Virus record (IMG/VR): IMGVR_UViG_3300020375_000001
Coordinates: 143,749 to 207,748 of that record
Source of the DNA: a virus
Taxonomy: Duplodnaviria; Caudoviricetes
Length of the DNA stretch: 64,000 bases
Direction: 5' to 3' (one strand)
Position numbers and translations under genes: made by a program
Shown here: piece after piece, positions 5,253-62,712 of the stretch
Position numbering within the stretch: position 1 is the stretch's first letter
How the letters are laid out: every line of letters begins with the position of its first letter
Notes under the pieces: generated by a model
Told to the model about the DNA's origin: nothing
Databases searched by the model: none
Seen by the model: only the letters and a program-made list of their open reading frames with translations

Positions 5253-7814
5253 TTACAAATTTGCAAAGTATTCGTCCGCTACCTTTTTGGAGAGAACTTC
5301 TAAAACCCGATTGGTAGTGCCCATGATATCGGGACTTAGTACGATACGGTTAGCAATCGACTGACGCCCAAAGATTACATCAATCGGTTCCCCGCTCTCG
5401 GTTTCGTTAGTACCAGTCATTACCCGCCCGATAATGGTCTTCAGCTGATTACCCAATACCGCCTTATCACCGACCCCTGCAGGGAGTGACTTAGTGATAT
5501 AAATCTTAATAACCGCTTGGTCCATTACAAGTCGACGTCCCTCAACGTTGATAGGTTCGTTTACTTGTCCGGTGGTGGCATCTTCCAGAGAAAGACTTTT
5601 GACTCGTTCAGCCCGTTCTTTATCAGCTCGGTTGACGATAGTCTTAAGTGAACTAGACATGTCGGCTTTGTCACCGTTATAGAGAACTTCGATTTTCTCT
5701 ACCACACCTTTGTTCTTTGCCTTAGGGTTTAACTGACCCAACGCCTTTAGAGATTCCGCACTTTCACTATCAATAAGCGAGTTATTGGCCGTTAGTTGGT
5801 CCTCTAGCGTACATAGGATAGTTTCTAAATCTACTTCATCTCCGACTTTTACAAGATTTAAAATACCCTGTTCGAAGTCAATTACGATGTTTCGCACCGC
5901 TGTGATTTCAGTAGAAAGACCCGCACCCAGTTTTTCCGATACCGCACAGGAGTCCTCAAGTGTATCTACTGACTCCATCAATGCCACGTTAACAAGCGCA
6001 CCTGCTTTCCAGTTGACCTGAGTATTATCATCATAGTCACGTTCAAAGAAACCAGTGTTCCAAGACAGGATATGTCCCGCCTTAAACTTCTGGCCTTTAA
6101 TCAAGTCAGACTCAATGCGCTGGGGTACGTGAGTACCGTTAACTGTACCGTAAACCGTTCCCAGTTCAATCTTCACAGAGCTGCCGTCTTTGTACTCAAC
6201 TGTCAGGTGCGTTTCCCCAACATCCGTTACCTTCCCTTCTTGCTCCGCTGCAACAGCGAACATTGGGTCGACACGGTGAGCCAATACTTGTTCGTATCCA
6301 GTGGATAATGGCATGACCTTGTAGTTCTCAGCGGCAACGCCATGAGAATGCTGAATACTAATGAAGTTTGTCCGCTTAGGGTCATCACTGGTTGCACCCG
6401 GTGACAGAATAGCAGACGTTGACAACAGTTTGGTAGCTGACTTCTCTTTACTATCCACTCGCTTAGTTGTACCACGAATTGAATCAAAGTTCGGGTCCGC
6501 AGTTAAGTAAGTGTTAATAGCTACTGAGCCAGAGTCCACCGTTGCTTCTGAAATAACACCCATGTCGTTCTTGTGGTATACACGCGAACTCGCTACCATG
6601 GAACGAGAGGAACGACCGCCATCACCAGAGTAAGTCACCAGTTCTTTCTCTTTCAGGTTATGGACAGGGTTCAACTCTTCTACCGTTTTAGTAGTAGCAT
6701 CTTTTAGGATGTTCATCCACACAGCTTTTGGATTCATCTCAATGCGAGACTGAGAGCTCATGGGCTGTGCTTGTTGTTTACGAATAGAAGCAATCAGCTC
6801 TTTGTAGATAAAGCCAGGCATACGCTCGTAGCCTTTGATGCGCATATATTCCGTATCAGTCTCATCAGGAGTTCGGTCGTCTTTTAGCAGTTCAACTGCT
6901 TTGACTACCAGCCCTTCAAAAGACCGTGGCTCTTTACGACGCTCTAAGATACCATCGGTAATGGGGTCGATAAATAAAGGTTGCAGTAAATCCATCTCAC
7001 GAATGAAACGAAGTCCCACACCACGAGATTCCAACACTGGTTGGTATACCGTCTTCTTATCAAACTCTTCGCGGTTGAATTGTTTGATTGCCGAACGATA
7101 CTCGTAGAACCCATTTAGCAACATGGTGATTTCTGGGTCATCCGTTGGGTAAATAAGCGTTTCATCTTTAAAGACGATACTGGCTTCCCCATCCTCTAAC
7201 TCTACCCGCTGCCCCTTACGTACCGAACGAGTCTTTACTTTAATAATGCGTAGCAACTTGGTTAAACCAAGCATGTAGCCCAGTACTACGCCCGCCGGTA
7301 TAGCCGTCGAGAATATCTTAACTTCGGCCATGTCGTTGGGTTCTTTACCCAAATCAGTGCCGAGCAGACTAGCCAGACTACCAATAGTGTCAACATTGCC
7401 ATCAACGTCGCTGTAATGATACAGGCCAGCGTTATCCAAGGTAATGAACTTGTTACCTTTCCCTTTACCGCAGACCACGTGTCCACGACGTTCAAGTTTC
7501 TTAAGTACGTCCGCACCATAAAGAACTTCTCGTTTATCGTACTCATACGACATGTCACCAGCAGCACACTTAAAACTAAGAATGCCTTTAGCCATTCCAC
7601 TATAGGTTGGTGGAACTTTCGCTGACTTACTGACCGCATTACCCTGACGAACGGAAGTGATAATTGTGTTTTCATCATCCACTCCAAGCGTAATAATCTT
7701 TTTACGCTGCCATGCCGAACGGTCATAGACCGCCTTCGAGCTTCGAGTTACGAACAGCTTACCGTAATAACTGGTTAGCGCTACGGTATCTGCCTTGGTT
7801 TTACGGATGGGAAG
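5253..7814 (-). CDS. Virion RNA polymerase beta subunit (phiKZ gp178-like), exon 2
   Basis: Beta motifs (VTYSGDGGR, SISIQH-like FISIQHSH, DTLEDS, GVGDKAVLGNQLKT); begins LPIRK after the predicted intron 3' G at 7815. Confidence 0.88.
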   Translation of the reverse strand, partial: LPIRKTKADTVALTSYYGKLFVTRSSKAVYDRSAWQRKKIITLGVDDENTIITSVRQGNAVSKSAKVPPTYSGMAKGILSFKCAAGDMSYEYDKREVLYGADVLKKLERRGHVVCGKGKGNKFITLDNAGLYHYSDVDGNVDTIGSLASLLGTDLGKEPNDMAEVKIFSTAIPAGVVLGYMLGLTKLLRIIKVKTRSVRKGQRVELEDGEASIVFKDETLIYPTDDPEITMLLNGFYEYRSAIKQFNREEFDKKTVYQPVLESRGVGLRFIREMDLLQPLFIDPITDGILERRKEPRSFEGLVVKAVELLKDDRTPDETDTEYMRIKGYERMPGFIYKELIASIRKQQAQPMSSQSRIEMNPKAVWMNILKDATTKTVEELNPVHNLKEKELVTYSGDGGRSSRSMVASSRVYHKNDMGVISEATVDSGSVAINTYLTADPNFDSIRGTTKRVDSKEKSATKLLSTSAILSPGATSDDPKRTNFISIQHSHGVAAENYKVMPLSTGYEQVLAHRVDPMFAVAAEQEGKVTDVGETHLTVEYKDGSSVKIELGTVYGTVNGTHVPQRIESDLIKGQKFKAGHILSWNTGFFERDYDDNTQVNWKAGALVNVALMESVDTLEDSCAVSEKLGAGLSTEITAVRNIVIDFEQGILNLVKVGDEVDLETILCTLEDQLTANNSLIDSESAESLKALGQLNPKAKNKGVVEKIEVLYNGDKADMSSSLKTIVNRADKERAERVKSLSLEDATTGQVNEPINVEGRRLVMDQAVIKIYITKSLPAGVGDKAVLGNQLKTIIGRVMTGTNETESGEPIDVIFGRQSIANRIVLSPDIMGTTNRVLEVLSKKVADEYFANL

Positions 7815-49654: not shown

Positions 49655-49762
49655 AAAACCATCTGGAGTGTGTTTAATACTTTATTGAGAGAAATAGTAT
49701 GCAGAGGCAGTATAGGCCTTAGCTGTCTCGGACGTATAACGAATTCGTTAGAGGAGTTCATT

Positions 49763-51298
49763 TTGACTAGTCACTATCAATACCCATACGACCCAACGGG
49801 AGAAAATCCCTTAAATGTCGTTACGGATTTACCACATCCGCTTACCCCCGTACAAGGTAAGGGTTATTCTTTAATCGTTCCTAAAGCTGGTCCATTCTTT
49901 AAGAAAGATTTCAAACTTGTACACAAGACAAGTGGTGCAGTACTTACTCCAGACGTGGATTATGTATTTACTCACTTGGTGTTGGATTTATCACAAGCGT
50001 TACAGAAACATATCTATGGCTCCGTAACTGTTGTTAACCAACGTTTTATGGGCGAGGTTGTCCCAATCTATCGCACCGTTGGCGGTGAGCTTGCATTGGA
50101 TGATAACCACTTTGCAGAATATGCCATCCATTTGCTAGAAGCAGATGGTGCGTATCCCTGGGATAAATTAAAGAACATCCCAACCGAGTTTCCAGTAGAT
50201 GGTCACAAAGTACCTATCGAAACTACAGCCGGTTACGATGACCTTGTTGCAGCCGTTAAAGGGTTAGGTACTAGCGGCGACCACATGCATGACATTCAGA
50301 ACATCCGTCACTTAGATGACAGACTTAGAAATAAGTTGGATGCCAATGGAAGTTATAAGGTATTGTCGAATGCCAAGCTGCATGTTCAAAACGTATTTAC
50401 TGGCACCATCCAGTGTCGCTTACCAAAGGTAAAAACACGTTGTTTGATTAGGGCCAAACTTCAAATCACTGACGGTAGTCTAATTAAGACACTCGAAGTA
50501 TCTGGTGAAGTGAAGCCCTACAATGACGGTGTTATACCAGAGCAATGGGCGGCACAACGCATTACCCCTTCCTACACATGTTGGAACGGTGATGTGTATC
50601 TGAGTTACGACAGTGAACACTACCCTACGGTATTTCTTGGTAACAACGAAGAATGGAACAATGCACATATTGCCATCATCGAATATTTCACGGTTAACCC
50701 AGATGAAATTGAAGGTGAGCTAAGTCCTTTCCGTGTTAGTATTGCCTCTTCCTTCGCTGGTCTGCAGTACACCAATACCAATGACGCCGGTTTAATCATG
50801 ACGCCGCAGGATACTGTCGGTGAATTGTCTAACGTCGTTAATCGTCGTTACTACGGGGTTATGCCAGAAGGTATCTACTACGGATTTAGTATTGTACAAA
50901 CCGAAGTGGATAAGATACGTGTTGGTAATGTCACCGAGCGTAGCTCAGCCGTTATCTACGAGGGTGAAGAGTCGGCCACCGTTGTGCTTAATAAGCAGGC
51001 ACAAATTCTAACCGTCGCCAATCCTCAGTTTAGCGCAATCGTCCTCGAACTTGTTCCACTTGGGCAGGTTGGTGACCCACGCTTTAAGGTGGATTTACCT
51101 GACAGGGAAGCGCAGATTCGATTGGTGGATACCAATGCCGTCACTGACAACATGTTGGTTATTGGTGAAATTAACTGGCCACATGGTGACCCAGAATTGA
51201 CGGTAGACCACTTGTCGTACAACAATCGTCAGAACGCCCAATGGGATGCAGGTGTTATTACGCCGATAACTTCGGATGTGGTATATCAAGCCCCATAG
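49763..51298 (+). CDS. Baseplate/fibre-attachment protein (start moved to TTG 49763)
   Basis: GAGGAG SD; N-terminal YPYDPTGENPLN...IVPKAGPFF domain, paralogous to the N-terminus of 58540..62712. Confidence 0.7.
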   Translation: MTSHYQYPYDPTGENPLNVVTDLPHPLTPVQGKGYSLIVPKAGPFFKKDFKLVHKTSGAVLTPDVDYVFTHLVLDLSQALQKHIYGSVTVVNQRFMGEVVPIYRTVGGELALDDNHFAEYAIHLLEADGAYPWDKLKNIPTEFPVDGHKVPIETTAGYDDLVAAVKGLGTSGDHMHDIQNIRHLDDRLRNKLDANGSYKVLSNAKLHVQNVFTGTIQCRLPKVKTRCLIRAKLQITDGSLIKTLEVSGEVKPYNDGVIPEQWAAQRITPSYTCWNGDVYLSYDSEHYPTVFLGNNEEWNNAHIAIIEYFTVNPDEIEGELSPFRVSIASSFAGLQYTNTNDAGLIMTPQDTVGELSNVVNRRYYGVMPEGIYYGFSIVQTEVDKIRVGNVTERSSAVIYEGEESATVVLNKQAQILTVANPQFSAIVLELVPLGQVGDPRFKVDLPDREAQIRLVDTNAVTDNMLVIGEINWPHGDPELTVDHLSYNNRQNAQWDAGVITPITSDVVYQAP

Positions 51299-51460: not shown

Positions 51461-52549
51461 ATGACCGTACAAATTCGTGTTAAAACTGGTTTAGAAGCAA
51501 ACCGCCTGGCCTACACGCCCGCGCAAGGTGAACTTCTTGTAACAACTGACACCCAGAAGATTTACGTTGGTAACGGCGCTACTCCTGGTGGTGTTGGTGT
51601 TGGGGCCAGTTGTGAATTGGTAGCCGACGAAACAGCGATGCTTGCTTCAAAAGCAATGCCTGGAGACCTGGTATTCCGTTCAGACCTCGGCCACGTTTTC
51701 GTACTTGCGGGTGCAGACCCAACAGTAATTGGAAACTGGATTGATACTGACGTAACTGACGCTGCCGATGTCGGCCTTGACAAAGTTCAGAACTACGGTA
51801 TCAGTGACTCTGTTGATGAAAACGTTTCTAACCAGTACGCAAGCTCTAAAGCTGTGTATACGGCTAACCAACGTGCCATCGCTGCAGAAAACACTGCTAT
51901 CTCTTACGCTGACCAAGTTAAAGCTGACTTACTTGGTGGTGCACCAGATGCCGCTCTTGATACCCTTCTTGAGCTTGGCGCAGCCATCACAGACAATGAT
52001 TCAGAAATCGCTGCAATCACATCTACGCTGGCAAACAAACTGGACATCTCTGCGTTTGATGCTTTCGTAGCTCGTACCGATAACCCACATAGCGTAACTA
52101 AAGCGCAAGTGGGCCTTGACCTGGTTGAAAACTATGGTATCACTGATGCCATTGACCAAGACGTGTCAACTCTGTACGCATCTGCCAAAGCAGTTAAAAC
52201 TGCTTACGACCTTGCTGCACTTGCTCGCTCTGAATCACTTGATTCACAGCAGTTAGAAGGTAAGACCCTGGCAGAAGTTGTTGCTCAAGCACAAGCTGGT
52301 CTTGCAACTGATGCAAACCTGCAAGCTCACTTAAGCGACACCAACAACCCGCACAACGTAACTAAGGCACAAGTTGGCTTGGGTAACGTTGAAAACAAAT
52401 CGGTTGCTGAAATCTTAGCGTCTGACGCTGAGACAATGCTGGCTACTGATAAGTCACAGCGCGTTGCTACTACGCAATTCGTTGACGACAAGCTGGTTAA
52501 CGACAAGTACATCAAAGATGGCGACGTTATTGATGGGGGCACCTTCTAA
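51461..52549 (+). CDS. Tail/head fibre protein with MTD-N-like N-terminus and NPHxVTKAQVGL repeats
   Basis: GELLVTTDTQKIYVGNG; two NPH(S/N)VTKAQVGL repeats plus a DVGLDKVQNY variant; C-terminal IDGGTF. Confidence 0.8.
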   Translation: MTVQIRVKTGLEANRLAYTPAQGELLVTTDTQKIYVGNGATPGGVGVGASCELVADETAMLASKAMPGDLVFRSDLGHVFVLAGADPTVIGNWIDTDVTDAADVGLDKVQNYGISDSVDENVSNQYASSKAVYTANQRAIAAENTAISYADQVKADLLGGAPDAALDTLLELGAAITDNDSEIAAITSTLANKLDISAFDAFVARTDNPHSVTKAQVGLDLVENYGITDAIDQDVSTLYASAKAVKTAYDLAALARSESLDSQQLEGKTLAEVVAQAQAGLATDANLQAHLSDTNNPHNVTKAQVGLGNVENKSVAEILASDAETMLATDKSQRVATTQFVDDKLVNDKYIKDGDVIDGGTF

Positions 52550-53865: not shown

Positions 53866-56679
53866 ATGGAACAATTAGATGTTTTAATGCACGACCAGCA
53901 CTCCACACTACGTGTTCGCCAAATTGCTCAAAAGCAAACGGATGGTACGTGGCGCTCTTTGTACGCTCTTAACAACAACGTAACAATCGAGACGGCATGG
54001 AATACTGGTGTTACCACTCAAACTCAGTGGGGTACTATCTTTAACACATCACGCATGACAAACAGTGCTTTTGAGACTGGTAAAACGACTTCACAGTCAA
54101 CGACCACCAACTGGACGACGTCACGCACAACTGATGTATCACAGCTGACCGCTAAGTCTACCCAAACGGAATGGACTACTAGCCGCCAGACTGAGCATAC
54201 CACTGACCAGGCCACTAATACCAATTGGAACATCCAGACGCAGACAGTGTTTACAACTAACACATCTACGACTACCAATTGGACGTCTAGTCGACAAACG
54301 GATTATAATTATTCTAAGTCGACGACTACTCAGTGGACAACCGCTGCTGAAACTGAACTCGTTACTTCACATAACACGACAACTGAATGGACCACGTCCC
54401 ATTCGTCAAATACCATGTGGGCAACCAGTCACAGTACAGATTATTCTACCTCACATTCTACCACCACTACTTGGTCTACCTCTGACACTACTTCAAAGAG
54501 TACCACCACCCAGTGGACAACGGTTGTGAGCACGGATAAGACTACCTCGAAAAGTACCACTACTACGTGGACAACTGGTAACACGACTTTGAAGACAACG
54601 TCTACTAGTTGGGCAACTCTTCGTAGCACCAGTAATTCAACATCGAAGAGCACCACTACTACGTATAATACCTCGCATTCTACCAGTCATTCAACGGTAA
54701 CCAGTTACCTGACTGCAAAGACCACGTCGTATAATACCAGTAAGTCAACCACTACCAGTTACACGACAACTTTTGGCACAAGCCGTAGTACATCTACCAG
54801 CTGGAACACTAGTAAGTCAACCACAAAGACTGCGTCTAAGTCTACGACCACAAGTTACAATACTTCGTGGAATACGTCACGTGGCACATCCAAGTCAACC
54901 AGTTATTCTGGCGGTACGTCTAAGTCCACTACAACGACTTGGGGGACTTCTAAGACAAAGTCAACGTCACGTTCCACGTCAAAAACGAGGTCTACGTCTC
55001 GCTCAACTACCAAGTCTGCCAGTCGCACCACGTCATGGAGCACTAGCTATCAAACGGTAACTGGTGGGGCATTTGATGAAGGTCCGGTATCTCGAACTAC
55101 GACCAGAAGTACATCTGGTACAACAAGATGGAACTATTCGGCTACTACGTCATGGAGCACCGGGTATAGTAAAAATACTTCGTGGTCGACTGGATACACC
55201 GGTAACACTAGCCGTGGGACTACCACGTCGTATAATACGACTAAAGGTAAGACCACGTCGTATACAACAACGTTTTCGACCAGTAAAGGAACTTCGAAGT
55301 CAACCACTACTTCTTGGGGTTATTCTGCGACAACCACGTACGCCACCTCTAAGAATACAGTGACGTCGTTTAATACGTCTCGTGGCACATCCAAGTCAAC
55401 TACGACTACGTGGGGTACATCGCACAGTACTAATAAGAGTACTTCCCATAGCACCAGCACCGGCTATAGTACGGTGTATGCTACGGCACGTTCTACTAAC
55501 ACTGGTTGGACAACCACGTATAACACCAACGTATCGACCTCATCGTCGTTTTCAACGTCGTATACGACTAACTATAGTACTAGTAAGTCAACGACTACCC
55601 AGTGGACTACTACAGGTAATACCGATAAAGTAACGGGTCAGAGCACCACCACTTACTTTGGAACTACTTGGAGCACTAGTCAGTCTACTACGACTACGTA
55701 CTTGACGGCTAAAACCACAGAGTATCAAACCTCTTTTGGTACCATGACCTCGTATCAAACGTCGGCTTCGACGGCCACGTCATATACGACTATTCATGTA
55801 ACGGACCGTACGACCAGTCAGTCAACCAATACGGCGTGGACAATAAGTTCAACGACCAGCGTAGCCATGTCTACCCAGACTTCAACGGTATGGGGAACAC
55901 AGCGGTTAACGGATGAGGCGCGTAGTGCGTCTACTACTACCGCATGGACTACGTCCTACAGTACGGATGTATTGACTGATGCAACAACCACTTCCAGCTG
56001 GATGACCGATTTCCAACGTTCAACTGATGCATTAACTGGTCAGAGCACAACGACAGAATGGACTACGTCTGCGGGAACTCAGAGTGGTTGGGTAACGTCT
56101 TACTCGACTAGTCGCGCTACTGCTGCATTTACGCAGTCACAGTGGAGCACTACTCGTGACACTATTGCCACGGTAGGTGAACAAGTAACATCTGCAAGCA
56201 CCACATGGTTAACGTCTCACACAACAACCAGTTCTTTCACTACCTCAGGTGGACAGGCTCAGGTTAAAGATACTAGCTGGGAAACTTCAGCAAGTACTCT
56301 GACTGTGTGGACAACAACTACAGTAGTTGACGGTGTTACTAGTAACACTGACACGCTTCGCAGTACTAATACTGTTTGGTCTACAACGGTACAAACCACC
56401 ACTACAGTGGCTGGTGACCGTACTACGACTACAAGCTGGACTACGTCTTATACTACCAACGCGGAAGTAACGTATACCACTAACGCACAATACACCACTC
56501 AGTGGAGTACAGCGAGACAAACCGATGTGTTGAATGCAACTTCAATATTGACATCGACTCAATGGACCACTACTGATTATTACGGTGTAACGCGTCAGAC
56601 ATCACAAGTAGCATCGACTGCTTGGATTACTGGTTACGAACGTCAAACCACGTGGGTGACAAGCCGTACTACATCTTAA
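53866..56679 (+). CDS. Thr/Ser-rich fibre-like protein predicted to form a giant beta-hairpin (937 aa)
   Basis: AAGGAG SD; aromatic-x-Thr repeats; mirror complementarity around D404-E405 (i+j=809). Confidence 0.85.
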   Translation: MEQLDVLMHDQHSTLRVRQIAQKQTDGTWRSLYALNNNVTIETAWNTGVTTQTQWGTIFNTSRMTNSAFETGKTTSQSTTTNWTTSRTTDVSQLTAKSTQTEWTTSRQTEHTTDQATNTNWNIQTQTVFTTNTSTTTNWTSSRQTDYNYSKSTTTQWTTAAETELVTSHNTTTEWTTSHSSNTMWATSHSTDYSTSHSTTTTWSTSDTTSKSTTTQWTTVVSTDKTTSKSTTTTWTTGNTTLKTTSTSWATLRSTSNSTSKSTTTTYNTSHSTSHSTVTSYLTAKTTSYNTSKSTTTSYTTTFGTSRSTSTSWNTSKSTTKTASKSTTTSYNTSWNTSRGTSKSTSYSGGTSKSTTTTWGTSKTKSTSRSTSKTRSTSRSTTKSASRTTSWSTSYQTVTGGAFDEGPVSRTTTRSTSGTTRWNYSATTSWSTGYSKNTSWSTGYTGNTSRGTTTSYNTTKGKTTSYTTTFSTSKGTSKSTTTSWGYSATTTYATSKNTVTSFNTSRGTSKSTTTTWGTSHSTNKSTSHSTSTGYSTVYATARSTNTGWTTTYNTNVSTSSSFSTSYTTNYSTSKSTTTQWTTTGNTDKVTGQSTTTYFGTTWSTSQSTTTTYLTAKTTEYQTSFGTMTSYQTSASTATSYTTIHVTDRTTSQSTNTAWTISSTTSVAMSTQTSTVWGTQRLTDEARSASTTTAWTTSYSTDVLTDATTTSSWMTDFQRSTDALTGQSTTTEWTTSAGTQSGWVTSYSTSRATAAFTQSQWSTTRDTIATVGEQVTSASTTWLTSHTTTSSFTTSGGQAQVKDTSWETSASTLTVWTTTTVVDGVTSNTDTLRSTNTVWSTTVQTTTTVAGDRTTTTSWTTSYTTNAEVTYTTNAQYTTQWSTARQTDVLNATSILTSTQWTTTDYYGVTRQTSQVASTAWITGYERQTTWVTSRTTS

Positions 56680-56686
56680 TTGGTTA

Positions 56687-56708
56687 GGGGTTGGGTTTTC
56701 TCAACCCC
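56687..56708 (+). terminator. Stem-loop between the fibre gene and the enzyme genes (attenuator or stabiliser)
   Basis: GGGGTTGGG-tttt-CTCAACCCC followed by ACTTATTT. Confidence 0.55.
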
Positions 56709-57494
56709 ACTTATTTGAGGATGGTAATTTTGAATACTGTTAAACGTAGTAACTTTAAAGCCATTGAACAGGTATGTGCTGAACACGGGGTAAGGCTTGT
56801 TGCCAACCACAAAGCAAATACTGGTGTCTATGGTAAAGAAAAGGCACTAATCTACGGTGAGGTTCTAGGTGGGTTTATTTTAATTCCCTTTTCGGTGGGA
56901 CATCGCATTAAACATCTCAATGAGGTGTTGGATACTCCATCGGGCAGTGGGTTAGAGAAATTCTTACCGCAGCAAATGGAACCGCCGCGTAACAATAAAC
57001 TGATTGTTCTTTCAGAACTGTTGGTATTGGAGCGGACACCTAAGTGCTGCAATCAATTGGTGGACTGGGCTAGGGGAGAACCTTGTCAGGTAATCCTTGC
57101 TGAAGATACCCCACCAGAGTTGGTGTACGGTATGCGTGCAACAGGGGACAACTTTACCTTCCTACCCCATACGGTCGATAAGTCAGAACACTTGCGCAAT
57201 GCTAAATCGATATTGTGTAGTACTGACAGTGGGATGGCACTAGAGGCACTTTGGTACCATAAAGAGCTCTCCTTTATGAAAGAGGGCAAACCCCACGACA
57301 TCGGACCGTTTAGACTAATTAATGTTCTGCTGGCCAACAAGGCTAGTGTACGACGTAAACGTCTTGTCAATTTCTTAAATGCTAAGTCGGGCGGCTTCTT
57401 CCTACCTGGGAAAGATGGTCTGACTGAGCTCCGTACATTCTTAATATCTTACGAGGATAATCATGAAAAATTTACCAACGCACATCGCGCTTAA
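56691..57494 (+). CDS. KpsS/KpsC (Capsule_synth)-like glycosyltransferase-fold protein; true start probably ~56720-56730
   Basis: LRNAKSILCSTDSGMALEALWYHK resembles the T.NS..GLEAL..GKP motif; GAGG SD at 56717. Confidence 0.55.
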   Translation: MGFLNPTYLRMVILNTVKRSNFKAIEQVCAEHGVRLVANHKANTGVYGKEKALIYGEVLGGFILIPFSVGHRIKHLNEVLDTPSGSGLEKFLPQQMEPPRNNKLIVLSELLVLERTPKCCNQLVDWARGEPCQVILAEDTPPELVYGMRATGDNFTFLPHTVDKSEHLRNAKSILCSTDSGMALEALWYHKELSFMKEGKPHDIGPFRLINVLLANKASVRRKRLVNFLNAKSGGFFLPGKDGLTELRTFLISYEDNHEKFTNAHRA

Positions 57495-58422
57495 CATGAC
57501 CAGCGCATGTAACATGGATTGCTCGTACTGCTATCAGGATAAACTGAATTCTGGTAAACGTATGTCAATCGAAGTCGTTGACCAAGTGGTTGAGATGATT
57601 AACCAAACTGAAGGTCAGATGTTTGATGTAAGCTTCTTTGGTGGGGAACCTACTTTAGCGAGCCGAGCCATCGAGCACTTTATCTGTTCTGCTGACCTTG
57701 CACGCATTGAGTCTTTCAGCCTGACTACCAATGGTACCAACATCGACGTGGCAAACCGCGTTGCTCGTATGGGCTACGAGTTGTCTAACGGTCGTATCAT
57801 GACAAAGGTAATGGTTTCTAATAAAGAAGTCCGTGCCCCACATGAAGACTTGGACTTGGAAGTTATCTCCAGTTCTTACCGTTACATTATCGGTATCGAA
57901 GATTTGGATATCTTGAACGAGTCAGTGGTTAGTGAATTACTGGAAAGCGATTTCGCTGCTGTGGATTTCCGTTTTGACTATTATGTCAACTGGGAAGACG
58001 TTGAGCATAGTAAAGTTGCCCGCATTGTTGAAATGTTACGTAATTTCCAAAGCATGACCAACCGTGTAACTTTCAATCCACCAAAAATCTTTAAGCCGGT
58101 ACTTGCCAAGAAGTGTCCTGCCCCACACATGAGCATTGACACCAATGGTGATATCATGCCGTGTCACCGTATGTTCAACGCCACTCGTGGCATTGGTCAA
58201 GCGGTCGGTAACATCATGGTTGATATGGAACAGGCAGTTAAAAGCCTTGCTTCTTTCCATGGTGAGACCCATGTAAGCAGTAGTTGTATTGGGTTTAACG
58301 CTAACTTTGGTCAGGACAGCGATACGTTTGTATTGTCTCTGGGTACCACTGAAGCCGATGTCGACACTGACTACATGTTGGAAGGTGAACTACAGGCTGC
58401 TATCCAACAAAGTTGTCGATAA
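57463..58422 (+). CDS. Radical SAM enzyme with SPASM/Twitch-like C-terminal domain
   Basis: CNMDCSYC, FFGGEP, TTNG, CPAPHMSIDTNGDIMPCH...GNI; overlaps the upstream gene by 32 nt. Confidence 0.92.
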   Translation: MKNLPTHIALNMTSACNMDCSYCYQDKLNSGKRMSIEVVDQVVEMINQTEGQMFDVSFFGGEPTLASRAIEHFICSADLARIESFSLTTNGTNIDVANRVARMGYELSNGRIMTKVMVSNKEVRAPHEDLDLEVISSSYRYIIGIEDLDILNESVVSELLESDFAAVDFRFDYYVNWEDVEHSKVARIVEMLRNFQSMTNRVTFNPPKIFKPVLAKKCPAPHMSIDTNGDIMPCHRMFNATRGIGQAVGNIMVDMEQAVKSLASFHGETHVSSSCIGFNANFGQDSDTFVLSLGTTEADVDTDYMLEGELQAAIQQSCR

Positions 58423-58451
58423 GTTGTAATTCTAAAAATTACATTTATAGG

Positions 58452-58488
58452 GGGATGGGCCAAAGCGCCCATCCCTTTTATATGACCG
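58452..58488 (+). terminator. Intrinsic terminator
   Basis: GGGATGGGC-caaagc-GCCCATCCC-TTTT, then TATGACCG. Confidence 0.75.
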
Positions 58489-58539
58489 GACGCGGTTAAA
58501 TATAAAAGATTCTAGAATGTTTTATTAAGGATTCATCCA

Positions 58540-61500
58540 ATGTCAATCGAGCCTATTAATAAATACCCGTTCGATAGTACTGCTGAGTCACCGACGAATT
58601 TCTTTCAGGATGAACGTCATGTGATTGAGCCGGATGGTTATAAAACACGAGTGGTGAGAGCTGGTCCTTTTTACAGCGAAACCCTAGTTGTTCGAACACC
58701 GTCTTCTATCGAACCGTTAGAGCGAGGTAAAGATTATCTCGTTAAGTATCTCTTTGAAGATGCGACACTAAAAACAGGTAAAGAAGTACACATTGCCATT
58801 TCAATGGTAGACCCTAACTGGCATGGGGAGCTTTTAATCTCTGGTCAAGTTGTGGGTGGTATGTATTCCTCTTTATACCCTACTGTGGTTGACGTGGTCA
58901 ATGGAATTCGTAAGAATTACGAAAACGTTGACTATAACGACTTAACCAATTTGCCAACTGCTTTCCCACCGGTATCACATCCTCACCATGTTAATGACTT
59001 GACTGGTATGGAGACACTGATTGAAGCAGTGCGTGAAAACAACCGTGCTATGAACGGGTCCTTGTTGTTCGATACCCGCCCATTAGAACGTTTGATTCGT
59101 CAGTCTGTTAATCGTACTGACCGTATTCAGCGACAGCCCTTTGAAGGCTCAACGTACGTCGGTCGCCATACCGGACCTATGACCTTTATCATGCCCGGTA
59201 CTCAAACACACAACTCTAACTTTGTGGCACGTATCCAGATTCAGAACCATGAAGGGTTTGAAATCCTTACGGTGTCTGGTCAGGAAGTCATTGAGCGCAT
59301 CGAGAAAGTCAAAGTACATGGTACAACGGCTTATGCCGTGGATATCTACCGTGACCGCAATATGCGCATCTGTGTATCAATTGGTAACGACACCACCGAG
59401 TGGGTAGATGCCACCATTGCCATTGAAAGTATTCTGTGGAGCGTGGATGACCCTGTGTATCGTGAGGTACCTTTACGTTGGTCACAAATGTCCGTCAATG
59501 AGTTGAAGACTCGTGAACCGACCCATATGGAGAAAATATTGGTTGTTGGTTCGCAGGCCCTGGGTAAACTGTACGGATACAGCGACGGCATTCCGATTGA
59601 CCTTGGTGCTGAAACCGAACCGTCTGAAACAACAGAGCTTACGGAAGAGGAAGCACAGCTTCGTGCTATTGAAAGTACGCTGCGGTCACTTCAACCGCAC
59701 AGCTTTGGTACGTTGAGTCGCCCTGAGATTGAAGGGGTTAAGATTAACCAATGGGTTAGCTCTTACGAAACTGGGGACACCATTATTCGTGTGGCCAGTA
59801 TCCCGGAAGGCATGATTGAAGACATGGACAACTCACTGCGTTGGGTTTTACGTGTTAACGATTTAGACGGTTATGTGTACTCTGAGGCAGGAATCATTCT
59901 GTCTGATGGGTCCGTGGCTTGGCGCTTTACTGGACGTGAATTATCCGACTGGCATTATTGGGAATTCGGACGGGCTATCCAAGAACGTTTGGAGATGGCA
60001 AAAGTTCCTGCTGGGGTATTGGAGACAATTACTCAGCCTGAACAGCTTGACCCGTATATCCTGAACACTGTTCCAACCTGGGGCACTGCATGGGATACTG
60101 CCTACGGTACCACGTATTCAACCACTGAGTACGAGAAGGTTAATACCAACTGGCTTACAGAAGCATCGCCAGAGGTTCAGACTAGCCGTTCTACGAGCTG
60201 GACAACTATGGACCTTACCAGTAAAACCACCACCATTCAAGGTGACGGTGAGTATCAGACACTGTGGACTACTACGAAGTCAACCGAGACTACGTATAAT
60301 ACTGGGTACAATACCGATACGTCCAGAAGTACAAGCAAGTCTACTACGACTACTTGGACAACTGCGACCGGTAAGACTACCGACCGTTCTACGTCGCGTG
60401 CGACTAATACGGCTTGGACTACGTCCTACAGTACCACTAAGTCACGTACTACTGAACTGGGTACAACTACTACCTGGTCTACTGCGCGTTCAACAACGAA
60501 ATCGCGTACAACTACAGTTAGTACCGGCGGGACTGCGACTACAAGTCATAGTACCACTACATCGTACAGCACGAATTATAGCACCAGTTATAACACTAGC
60601 TATAATACGTCTAAGTCGACAACTACTGTCTTCGGTACGAATAAGTCAACAACCACGTCTTATAATTCAAGCTACACAACGAATTATAATACTACCTTCG
60701 GTACGAATAGAAGCACTAACACGACTTGGTCAACCTCGAAGCCTACTTCGAAATCGACTACGACTAGTTGGGGCGCGTCACGTAACACCACGAAGAGTAG
60801 AAGTACTACCAAGTCTGCTAGCCGCACCACTTCTTGGACGACTAACTACCAGACACTCATTCGTGAGTCGTTTGATGAAGGTCCTGTTAGTAGAGCCACG
60901 TCGCGTACGACTGAGGCCACCACGTCTTGGAACTACTCGGCAACAACCAGTTGGACGGTTAATACTTCGTACACCGCAAGTAAGTCGACCACTACATCGT
61001 ACAACACGAGTTATAATACTAACCGTGGCACTACGACTACCTGGAATACTTCTCGTGGTACAAGTAAGTCGACCTCTAAATCAACTAGCAGGTCAACTAC
61101 AACTGCTTGGAACACCTCTAAGTCAACTACGACTACATGGGGAACCTCGCATACAACCAGCAAGTCCACGTCACACTCGACGTCTAGGTCTACTACCACA
61201 AGTTACTCCACCGGGGTTAGTGGGAATACGTCTTGGACAACCAGTTACAGCACTAACACTTCAGTTAGTACTAGTGCGACCACTACTACCCAGTGGGCCA
61301 CAAATTACAATGCTACTACTTCTCGTTCTACTAACCAGTCAACGAACACTGTTTGGAATACCAGCTACTCTACCGGTAGCACAAAACAAACAAGTGCTTC
61401 TACTACAACGCAGTTTACTACTACGTTTAGTACTGTTACACAGGTTGCTACAAGTAGAAACACCAACACGGCATACCAGACTTCACGTGCAACCACTGGC

Positions 61501-62712
61501 TTCAGTGATGTAAGTGTAAGCTACTTGACCGAGGTGGAGACTTCAGTAACAACAACTGGTGAGAAGCTAACTACTTGGACAACGTCACACACGACAAGTT
61601 CTGAGCTGGTTAAGCAGACTGAAACTAGCTGGACCACTGACTACATTGGTGGTACCTCTTGGTCTACTTCACGCCTGACCAACCGAAACACTTCTAAGAC
61701 TACCACTACGGCAGTTGACATGAGTGCGACGACAACTGTGGGTACATCTGCGACTGTAACAACATCGTGGGTAACTTCACATGAGACGGCGGTAGAAGGT
61801 AACGTGGAAACGGCAACATCGTGGAACACGTTACGTCAGACATCATGGCTGACATCCGCATCTACAGTGACAGTCTTCAGTACTGTTGTTGATGGTGTAA
61901 CAAGAGAGACAATCACCTCTTGGACAACGGAGTTTACAACGACTGCGTCAACGTCCTTTAACACGGCTGCAACAACTCTGGTGGGAACTAATGCGACCAC
62001 TACTACGAGTTACGCAACCAGCGTTGAGACCGCTGTGGATGGCTCAGTAGAGACGACGACAAATTGGACAACCAACAAGTCTACGACTACTAACTGGACA
62101 ACTACGGATACAACTAGTTGGACAACTGGCGCTAACACTAGCGTCACTAAGACAACTGTGGGCAATACAGCTACTAGCTGGACTAGCTCGGTTGATACGT
62201 CGTACAACACTGGTGTGCTGACTGATACCCAATGGGCAACGAATTTCCATACTCGTTGGACAACGTCTACATCAACTGTGGTACAAACTGGTGCAACTGT
62301 TACGACCACTTGGTTAACTCAGGCTACCACAGCTGGACAAACCAACGTAGCGTTGCGTGAAACCAACACAGCTCAAATGGCTGAAGTGACCACAACTTGG
62401 TCTACAGAGACTACGGTTTCTGAGAACACAAGTCGAAGCACTGATGTTAGCTGGCAGACTGCGCACCCAAGTGACCCGACTACGTCGATTACTACAAGTG
62501 CGGCAATCACCACTGCGTGGGTTAACGAGCGTCAAACTTCCATTAGTACAAGCAGTAGCTACATGACAGCTATTGAATCTGCGTTCTTAACTGAACATAC
62601 ACAGCAGACTAACTGGTACACTAATGTGAACACTGACAAGCTTACTACAAGAACGTCCGAAGCGACGACCTCTGTAACCACGTCACGTGACACAAGCTGG
62701 AACGGTACGTAA
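58540..62712 (+). CDS. Virion-anchored fibre protein: baseplate-attachment N-terminus plus Thr/Ser-rich giant beta-hairpin (1390 aa)
   Basis: N-terminal YPFDSTAESPTN...VVRAGPFY domain; C-terminal ~870 aa Thr/Ser-rich, with mirror complementarity around D779-E780 (i+j=1559). Confidence 0.87.
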   Translation: MSIEPINKYPFDSTAESPTNFFQDERHVIEPDGYKTRVVRAGPFYSETLVVRTPSSIEPLERGKDYLVKYLFEDATLKTGKEVHIAISMVDPNWHGELLISGQVVGGMYSSLYPTVVDVVNGIRKNYENVDYNDLTNLPTAFPPVSHPHHVNDLTGMETLIEAVRENNRAMNGSLLFDTRPLERLIRQSVNRTDRIQRQPFEGSTYVGRHTGPMTFIMPGTQTHNSNFVARIQIQNHEGFEILTVSGQEVIERIEKVKVHGTTAYAVDIYRDRNMRICVSIGNDTTEWVDATIAIESILWSVDDPVYREVPLRWSQMSVNELKTREPTHMEKILVVGSQALGKLYGYSDGIPIDLGAETEPSETTELTEEEAQLRAIESTLRSLQPHSFGTLSRPEIEGVKINQWVSSYETGDTIIRVASIPEGMIEDMDNSLRWVLRVNDLDGYVYSEAGIILSDGSVAWRFTGRELSDWHYWEFGRAIQERLEMAKVPAGVLETITQPEQLDPYILNTVPTWGTAWDTAYGTTYSTTEYEKVNTNWLTEASPEVQTSRSTSWTTMDLTSKTTTIQGDGEYQTLWTTTKSTETTYNTGYNTDTSRSTSKSTTTTWTTATGKTTDRSTSRATNTAWTTSYSTTKSRTTELGTTTTWSTARSTTKSRTTTVSTGGTATTSHSTTTSYSTNYSTSYNTSYNTSKSTTTVFGTNKSTTTSYNSSYTTNYNTTFGTNRSTNTTWSTSKPTSKSTTTSWGASRNTTKSRSTTKSASRTTSWTTNYQTLIRESFDEGPVSRATSRTTEATTSWNYSATTSWTVNTSYTASKSTTTSYNTSYNTNRGTTTTWNTSRGTSKSTSKSTSRSTTTAWNTSKSTTTTWGTSHTTSKSTSHSTSRSTTTSYSTGVSGNTSWTTSYSTNTSVSTSATTTTQWATNYNATTSRSTNQSTNTVWNTSYSTGSTKQTSASTTTQFTTTFSTVTQVATSRNTNTAYQTSRATTGFSDVSVSYLTEVETSVTTTGEKLTTWTTSHTTSSELVKQTETSWTTDYIGGTSWSTSRLTNRNTSKTTTTAVDMSATTTVGTSATVTTSWVTSHETAVEGNVETATSWNTLRQTSWLTSASTVTVFSTVVDGVTRETITSWTTEFTTTASTSFNTAATTLVGTNATTTTSYATSVETAVDGSVETTTNWTTNKSTTTNWTTTDTTSWTTGANTSVTKTTVGNTATSWTSSVDTSYNTGVLTDTQWATNFHTRWTTSTSTVVQTGATVTTTWLTQATTAGQTNVALRETNTAQMAEVTTTWSTETTVSENTSRSTDVSWQTAHPSDPTTSITTSAAITTAWVNERQTSISTSSSYMTAIESAFLTEHTQQTNWYTNVNTDKLTTRTSEATTSVTTSRDTSWNGT

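Follow-up and report, generated by a model that had tools for sequence, protein, structure and literature searches.

The segment at positions 60265 to 61488 of the window (the whole stretch of 64,000 nucleotides that was analysed, i.e., the last 64 kb of the 207,748-bp virus record IMGVR_UViG_3300020375_000001, which carries direct terminal repeats) encodes amino acids (aa) 576 to 983 of W_B, the 1,390-aa product of an open reading frame (ORF) of the window (P0001). Most probably (we would put the probability at roughly 0.75), this segment represents both arms of a single, very long antiparallel beta-hairpin, which would constitute the shaft of a fibre and carry a register barcode, in a phiKZ-like jumbo phage. 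The source phage is uncultivated and metagenome derived, and the similarity of its proteins identified it as a phiKZ-like jumbo phage. A paralogue of 937 aa, W_A (P0002), is encoded in the same window. The elements on which the argument is built are the following, where c denotes the constant sum i + j of the paired residue numbers.

58540 to 62712, plus strand: fibre gene W_B, 1,390 aa, from the ORF list and its translation
58552 to 59055, plus strand: gp131-like fibre-attachment N-domain of W_B, aa 5 to 172 (phrog_2163, E = 7e-41)
60259 to 60876, plus strand: putative hairpin arm 1 of W_B, aa 574 to 779, ungapped mirror partner of arm 2
60796 to 60957, plus strand: tip module of W_B, aa 753 to 806, with the turn F-D-E-G-P-V at 778 to 783, delimited by paralogue identity
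60877 to 61494, plus strand: putative hairpin arm 2 of W_B, aa 780 to 985, complementary to arm 1
61495 to 62709, plus strand: C-terminal Thr/Val/Glu/Trp-rich region of W_B, aa 986 to 1390, outside the main hairpin
53866 to 56679, plus strand: paralogue W_A, 937 aa, with the hairpin at aa 35 to 774 (nucleotides 53968 to 56187) and c = 809

In what follows, a residue is defined as large if it is aromatic (W/Y/F) or basic (K/R/H); a pair is complementary when an aromatic residue is opposite a basic one and same-class when an aromatic residue is opposite an aromatic one or a basic residue opposite a basic one. A gapped fold-back alignment of W_B returned a mirror with i + j = 1559 that contains no gap from the pair 574:985 to the turn at D779/E780. 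The exact register that a preliminary description of this DNA, made by reading the sequence, had followed out to W576-R983 is therefore correct, and the 22 residue pairs named there were all found, each summing to 1559. The same description had counted 21 of the 23 aromatic residues in the inner 109 positions as facing K/R/H; the enrichment stands, but the count has to be corrected to 20 of 23 (21 of 24 in 110 pairs). The aromatic exceptions among the inner pairs, W766, Y799, and F778, are each opposite Ala or Gly.

Over the 204 pairs from 576 to 983, 31 are complementary, none is same-class, and 18 contain one large residue. When arm 2 was fully shuffled, the number of complementary pairs averaged 3.9 and never exceeded 12 in 20,000 trials, and when the large positions of arm 2 were kept and only their aromatic or basic identities permuted, the mean was 15.5 (standard deviation, 2.8) and the maximum 26, with 0 of 20,000 permutations reaching 31. 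Furthermore, a scan of about 2,000 registers gave a score of 31 at c = 1559 and of 17 for the runner-up; in the register and shuffle test suggested in the preliminary description, the mirror thus lies far above its controls. Slipped registers generate clashes, with 6 to 8 same-class pairs at a shift of plus or minus 4 and 12 at a shift of +6, and the direct register, corresponding to a translation instead of a mirror, scores 13 versus 31. The mirror of W_A is likewise ungapped over 361 aligned pairs, from 35:774 to 395:414, with the turn at 404/405; of 240 pairs in it, 35 are complementary and 3 same-class. At the DNA level, no inverted repeat was found under the W_B mirror; we discarded such a repeat as the cause of the mirror also because in-frame reverse complements would not yield Trp/Lys pairs. 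A constant-period tandem repeat was not found in the hairpin either, with Tandem Repeats Finder listing two short arrays only.

The distribution of the large residues along the arms confirmed the presence of a two-residue alternation. The two arms of W_B together contain 80 large residues, of which all but one (79) are on the same strand face: 43 of 44 are at even positions in arm 1, and 36 of 36 are at odd positions in arm 2, which is the same face as that of arm 1. Half of this face (50%) is Thr, which accounts for about 85% of its non-large residues, and the opposite face consists of Ser/Thr/Asn/Gly/Ala. As a whole, the 408 residues of the hairpin comprise 236 Ser plus Thr, 40 aromatic residues, 40 K/R/H, 8 D/E, 2 Pro, and no Cys. 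In particular, the pair types summed over six proteins are YK (42), YR (35), YH (32), WK (32), WR (30), FR (14), FK (12), FH (1), and WH (0). The unpaired large residues of the same six proteins face Ala/Gly/Val, with Thr opposite in only about 10 of 119 cases; it follows that Thr is set against Thr, and that the partner of a large residue is either complementary to it or small.

The spacing between successive large residues depends on direction. A distance of 4 prevails over a distance of 6 from aromatic to aromatic (87 versus 18 cases), from aromatic to basic (114 versus 16), and from basic to basic (93 versus 5), whereas from basic to aromatic, a distance of 6 prevails over 4 (105 versus 24). 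This spacing grammar is closed under the operation "mirror and complement," and its direction dependence would fit a chiral, twisted sheet. The order of the pairs in W_B is irregular, with runs of Tyr on one arm opposite basic runs on the other, and, being irregular and different in each protein, it would act as a register barcode.

From the spacing grammar, it can be derived that a strict decamer (a basic residue, 6 positions, an aromatic residue, 4 positions) is self-complementary under reversal, and for this reason, a repeat null needed testing. In a cross-paralogue control, in which the inner 27 homologous pairs were left out, windows of 150 pairs were scored, and the best of all registers was retained, arm 1, set against a reversed arm 2 taken from the other paralogue, reached 10 to 13 (complementary minus clashing pairs), whereas the own partner arm reached 24 to 27 at the expected register and the orthologous arms 21 to 25. 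Repeat grammar thus accounts for about half of the signal, and the remainder is specific to the own partner arm, a result on the basis of which we rejected the mirror as a mere by-product of a periodic repeat.

Orthologues of W_B, with about 71% identity, were identified in two other jumbo-phage contigs, namely, L008, a 206-kb IMG/VR contig (of which L020 is an identical copy from a different sample), and L007, a 218-kb contig (IMGVR_UViG_3300002038_000006). The orthologues of W_A and W_B are indicated as L8_A and L8_B on the former and as L7_A and L7_B on the latter, and a distant orthologue, P0008, is encoded on a 148-kb contig. Each of these relatives has a mirror of its own, with complementary and same-class pairs numbering, respectively, 40 and 1 in L8_A (239 pairs), 32 and 0 in L8_B (203 pairs), 26 and 0 in L7_B, 20 and 2 in L7_A, and 16 and 1 in P0008. 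When W_A and W_B are compared, the inner 26 pairs are 73 to 77% identical and the remainder only 18 to 32%; ordered by distance from the tip, 45 pair positions are found in one protein only, 4 are swapped, and 3 are the same. Both paralogues are nevertheless self-complementary, as expected from the earlier statement that W_B departs from the 937-aa protein beyond the tip while its pairing is kept.

Changes in length point in the same direction. Between W_A and L8_A, a 12-aa indel at -49.5 from the tip is mirrored by a 12-aa indel at +48.5 (four aligner settings agree), and the 98 residues separating the two indels share 65% identity, so that the matched indels for which the preliminary description had suggested looking do occur. 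One-sided indels were found only outside the hairpin, such as those of 63 aa and 8 aa in the C-terminal region of W_B with respect to its orthologue. As regards substitutions, W730:R829 of the window is replaced in L008 by K:Y and K353:Y456 by W:R, and not a single change produces a clash, although the true double swaps among orthologues number only two. The arms are 71 to 73% identical while the synonymous sites are saturated, with a dN/dS of 0.14 for arm 2, which argues for purifying selection on the hairpin arms. Own-arm specificity, matched indels, compensated swaps, and a tip-centred block of extra residues in L7_B that is complementary to itself together support the earlier proposal that selection maintains the pairing.

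The tip module is 60 to 68% identical across all four proteins. The turn itself varies by phage, being F-D-E-G-P-V here and W-D-G-A-G-G in L008. At the DNA level, the tips of the two L008 paralogues (L008:5064-8141 and L008:10001-14395; about 90 nucleotides on either side of the turn) share 85% identity, and those of the window paralogues share 61%, a difference that suggests recent gene conversion around the turn in L008.

The connection with the virion comes from the N terminus of W_B. Residues 8 to 166 match the N-domains of phiKZ gp131, gp133, gp134, and gp135 (E = 9e-15 to 5e-8), and in phiKZ, the fibres are attached to the outer baseplate by gp131-like N-domains, six per fibre base (PMC13250141). 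The fusion of the hairpin to a baseplate-attachment-like domain, already noticed in the preliminary description, is therefore backed by homology, with which the phiKZ atlas agrees (PMC13250141). By its N-domain, W_B can be assigned to the gp131-like fibre family, and this homology would place it in the virion. The likeness concerns a homologous N-domain of about 165 aa within a cluster of paralogues that share it; the distal parts are unrelated, since phiKZ gp131 ends in a seven-bladed propeller (PMC13250141), whereas W_B continues into a Ser/Thr-rich mirrored hairpin with no match in Pfam or the Protein Data Bank (PDB). A gp131-like N-domain was not found in W_A, and a 137-aa ORF upstream of the 937-aa gene, considered as a detached version of the domain, showed no similarity to it. 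Two further genes belong to the same context, the first of which shares the gp131-like N-domain and thus identifies the locus as a phiKZ-type fibre cluster, the counterpart of gp131 to gp135.

49670 to 51298, plus strand: fibre paralogue, 542 aa, with a gp131-like N-domain at aa 35 to 200 (phrog_2163, E = 8e-41)
51461 to 52549, plus strand: fibre-type ORF, 362 aa, matching tail-fibre and collar-fibre PHROGs

It is possible to hypothesize how such a protein would be arranged. The gp131-like N-domain would plug W_B into the outer baseplate, and the chain would then run outward as arm 1, turn at F-D-E-G-P-V, and come back as arm 2. With arm 2 returning toward the base, the C-terminal 400 residues would again be located near the base. 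An extended beta strand rises by about 3.3 Å per residue; on this basis, the approximately 206 residue pairs of W_B would span about 65 to 70 nm if fully extended, and the hairpin of W_A would span about 120 nm. The two-residue alternation would give the ribbon two faces, one small and polar (Ser/Thr/Asn/Gly), which may serve to pack several ribbons together, and a code face where Thr:Thr neighbours are the default and an aromatic residue is set opposite Lys/Arg/His every 4 or 6 residues, the contact being possibly of the cation-pi or stacking type. On the code face, Trp would pair only with Lys/Arg and Tyr also with His, and a large residue without a partner would be opposite Ala/Gly/Val. The correct register would be the one free of like-with-like contacts, which slipped registers would create. 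Moreover, the excess of 37 K plus R over 8 D plus E suggests that the shaft might have some affinity for anionic cell-surface polymers.

The individual ingredients of this architecture have parallels in known systems. Short model beta-hairpins are stabilised by cross-strand pairs of Trp/Tyr with Lys/Arg and by Thr-Thr pairs. Designed and natural short hairpins, which are two-stranded antiparallel sheets, therefore show on one of their faces the same cross-strand preferences as W_B, but they consist of 12 to 20 residues with one to three such pairs, whereas here, 30 to 40 pairs are distributed over 200 to 370 residue pairs and their order would constitute a register code. Among phage fibres, a comparable case is the needle of T4 gp37 (PDB 2XGF), in which, according to work by Bartual et al. 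in 2010, the chains reportedly fold back at the distal tip, giving a shaft of antiparallel strands. That needle carries iron-binding histidines along its length (PMC6957217). Different from gp37, with which it has no sequence similarity, W_B contains no H-x-H in aa 574 to 985, and its arms would be several-fold longer and matched by aromatic:basic and Thr:Thr pairs instead of metal sites.

Database searches did not reveal any closer relative of the hairpin. A phmmer search of W_B against all PDB chains returned nothing for the hairpin and only a weak match of the N-domain to the tail collar fibre 9d93 (E = 0.0014), and a PDB sequence search with P0001 and P0004 gave no match for the repeat regions. 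Pfam and NCBIfam contained no family for the hairpin when searched with the fibre proteins, and a search of the ESM Atlas by features gave only unnamed viral clusters, below 0.9. No equivalent of the hairpin shaft is described in the literature that we searched, which leaves out most subscription journals. Hence, within Pfam, PDB, and the searchable literature, the design has not been found described anywhere.

The same code is nevertheless present in other phage proteins. A Logan contig (SRR33471241; L010:9764-13630) encodes a 1,288-aa protein within a T4-like baseplate module, where its gene occupies the gp7 position and follows homologues of gp53, gp5, gp25, and gp6; the N terminus of the protein is unrelated to that of W_B, and its Thr-rich C-terminal part presents a mirror with 23 complementary and 1 same-class pair in 200 pairs, which no class permutation reaches. 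The hairpin of this protein carries a small insert at the tip, and a gene for a 1,957-aa protein adjoins. Furthermore, a family of 60 small virion proteins (130 to 350 aa; P0011 and P0013 to P0071) is encoded between the capsid and adaptor genes of marine podophages, and each of these proteins, one of which is encoded at L014:8001-8753 (a TARA metagenome scaffold), consists of two Thr-rich decamer arms around a globular domain of 64 to 111 aa. The two arms, 36 to 92 residues long, co-vary in length (r = 0.96, n = 47, the proteins not being phylogenetically independent). AlphaFold2 modelled one of these podophage proteins with a confident core and with long strands at E9-32/E184-207 and E42-74/E137-174, whose centre of symmetry is at c of about 216; for the same protein, c = 218 was obtained from the aromatic:basic scan. 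The family has no counterpart in Pfam or NCBIfam, and Foldseek found no match of the P0011 model in PDB at E <= 0.001. The arms of P0011, on either side of its confident core, are about 55 residues long.

A number of observations weigh against a giant hairpin or limit its support. In the podophage model just described, the arms have a predicted local distance difference test (pLDDT) score below 50 except beside the core, and the symmetry was read from strand limits and not from contacts. For W_B itself, AlphaFold2 run on aa 640 to 920 with a five-sequence alignment gave an unusable model (pLDDT, 35.7), with a meander of 20-residue strands in place of a hairpin. We know of no solved precedent for a two-stranded ribbon of this length. 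The collections searched contained only three to four related phages, and independent evolutionary events are consequently few: scans of viral and metagenome contigs for further orthologues gave only the same three phages, and a search of 1.8 billion proteins added one more orthologue together with low-complexity false matches, e.g., a serine-rich adhesin. L7_B has extra residues around the tip, 56 in arm 1 and 53 in arm 2, which are mutually complementary, but this block may derive from one tip-spanning recombination and not from two indels. In addition, the L007 orthologue of W_B is frameshifted exactly at the turn (L007:6330-6420), where the piece coding for D-E-G-P-V-S is gone, its length not being divisible by three, and arm 2 runs on in another frame with no start codon nearby; this could reflect a faulty assembly, a pseudogene, or the scar of a recombination. 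Finally, an intrachain hairpin and an antiparallel pairing between chains would leave the same trace in a sequence, which alone does not separate them.

Between the two fibre genes of the window, there is a gene for a radical S-adenosylmethionine (SAM) protein, preceded by an ORF that overlaps its start.

56691 to 57494, plus strand: 267-aa ORF overlapping the start of the radical SAM gene (phrog_26179, function unknown, E = 1.6e-5)
57463 to 58422, plus strand: radical SAM gene P0006, 319 aa, between both fibre genes (Pfam PF04055, E = 1e-12)

The three close phages all have the gene order fibre A, 255- to 267-aa gene, radical SAM gene, fibre B, and this synteny raises the possibility that the radical SAM enzyme staples the facing Trp/Tyr to Lys/Arg/His, in which case the code would serve both as a folding register and as a substrate layout, in addition to what the hairpin reading proposes. 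P0006 has the CX3CX2C motif at residues 16 to 23, and in three phages, Cys 16, 20, 23, 218, 234, 275, and 318 are conserved; the four beyond the motif would suit an auxiliary cluster, with the C-X15-C and G-X4-C pattern corresponding to a partial SPASM or twitch motif. In NCBIfam, P0006 comes closest to peptide-maturase radical SAM/SPASM families (PapB, the QHNDH maturase, DynA, and cyclophane formers). All of these matches are, however, far below the curated cut-offs, the best one, with PapB, reaching 85 bits versus a cut-off of 340. Radical SAM chemistry is known to produce Lys-Trp (StrB) and Arg-Tyr (RrrB) cross-links, and the observation that Trp is never opposite His, while Tyr is so 32 times, would agree with stapling; the hairpin contains no Cys, and any chemistry must then use other residues. 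On the other hand, the known cross-links span a few positions in short peptides and do not join partners hundreds of residues apart. The resemblance to streptide-type ribosomally synthesized and post-translationally modified peptides (RiPPs) lies in a peptide-maturase-like radical SAM gene beside genes rich in facing Trp/Tyr and Lys/Arg/His, and the difference lies in the putative substrate, a virion protein of about 1,000 aa instead of a short leader-core peptide; the fibre is a candidate substrate only. Moreover, the same code occurs with no neighbouring radical SAM gene in three contexts, i.e., P0008, the T4-like baseplate protein, and the podophage proteins, from which it follows that stapling is not needed for the mirror. 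We consider stapling unlikely, although, if it took place, the fibre of the virion would be covalently laddered by RiPP-type chemistry acting on a structural protein of about 1,000 residues.

A second alternative is that the mirror is satisfied between antiparallel chains, in a dyad-symmetric rod or a strand-swapped bundle instead of a simple hairpin. The i + j rule, the matched indels, and the compensated swaps would be equally satisfied by homo-oligomeric antiparallel pairing, and phage fibres are usually oligomers. The six gp131-like N-domains at each phiKZ fibre base fit such a view as well (PMC13250141). However, the centre of the mirror is of the turn type (D-E-G-P here and D-G-A-G-G in L008), and in other families, a globular domain of 64 to 111 aa sits exactly midway between equal arms, as would suit a stalk that presents a domain; both features favour the hairpin over interchain pairing. 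A fully extended dyad rod would, in addition, place attachment domains at both ends. An interchain arrangement seems to us quite improbable.

Insect antifreeze and ice-nucleation proteins are beta-solenoids with Thr-rich flat strand faces and aromatic ladders. These proteins are parallel-stacked repeats of constant period, whereas in W_B there is no constant period, and the symmetry is that of a mirror and not of a translation. That the segment adopts a beta-solenoid or some other repeat fold, or forms a mucin-like glycosylated spacer, with the mirror arising from an alternating repeat, would accord with the self-complementarity of the strict decamer, with the existence of related proteins having near-perfect decamers, and with the half score still reached by slipped or foreign registers, but it is very improbable in view of the irregular pair order free of any constant-period repeat, the twofold advantage, free of clashes, of the own arm over a foreign one, the mirrored indels, the strand parity, which continues without a break over more than 200 residues that contain 2 Pro and lack periodic Gly, and the purifying selection on the arms.

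If the giant hairpin is correct, there would be phage shafts made of one chain folded back on itself over 200 to 370 residue pairs, an architecture to be added to coiled coils, triple beta-helices, and beta-spirals. Their register would be set by a readable code (aromatic-cation, Thr-Thr, and large-small), which would make them the protein counterpart of a nucleic-acid stem and would entail a stem-like evolution, with paired indels and compensated swaps. The same principle would explain Thr-rich "hypothetical" virion proteins of jumbo phages, T4-like phages, and marine podophages, a class that Pfam, PDB, and AlphaFold2 fail to recognise, and it would provide natural rules for the design of beta-ribbons of programmable length. 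From a practical point of view, the mirror test is a cheap detector that requires the sequence only, and the length of a fibre could be predicted from it.

The C-terminal regions of the two paralogues (aa 986 to 1390 of W_B and aa 775 to 937 of W_A, the latter at 56188 to 56676) are both Thr/Val/Glu/Trp rich and weakly similar to each other. The region of W_B shows a weak fold-back, with a score of 44.5 versus 207 for the main hairpin, and the orthologous C termini differ by one-sided blocks of 61 to 63 aa, which suggests a repeated module of such a size. We also considered a third strand, contributed by this region and pairing with either arm, but no register stood out.

As for the surroundings of the hairpin, nucleotides 56691 to 60200, which cover the 267-aa ORF and the radical SAM gene and extend into the 5' part of the W_B gene, had no megablast match among deposited phages. 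The 267-aa ORF has no family in Pfam or NCBIfam, and its position is kept in the relatives. A 423-aa ORF at 60242 to 61513 on the plus strand overlaps the hairpin region in another frame, and past the L007 frameshift, the wrong frame is free of stops for about 255 codons (6400 to 7169). Neither of the two looks like a gene; the ACN/TCN/AGY codon composition seems to have produced them as by-products.

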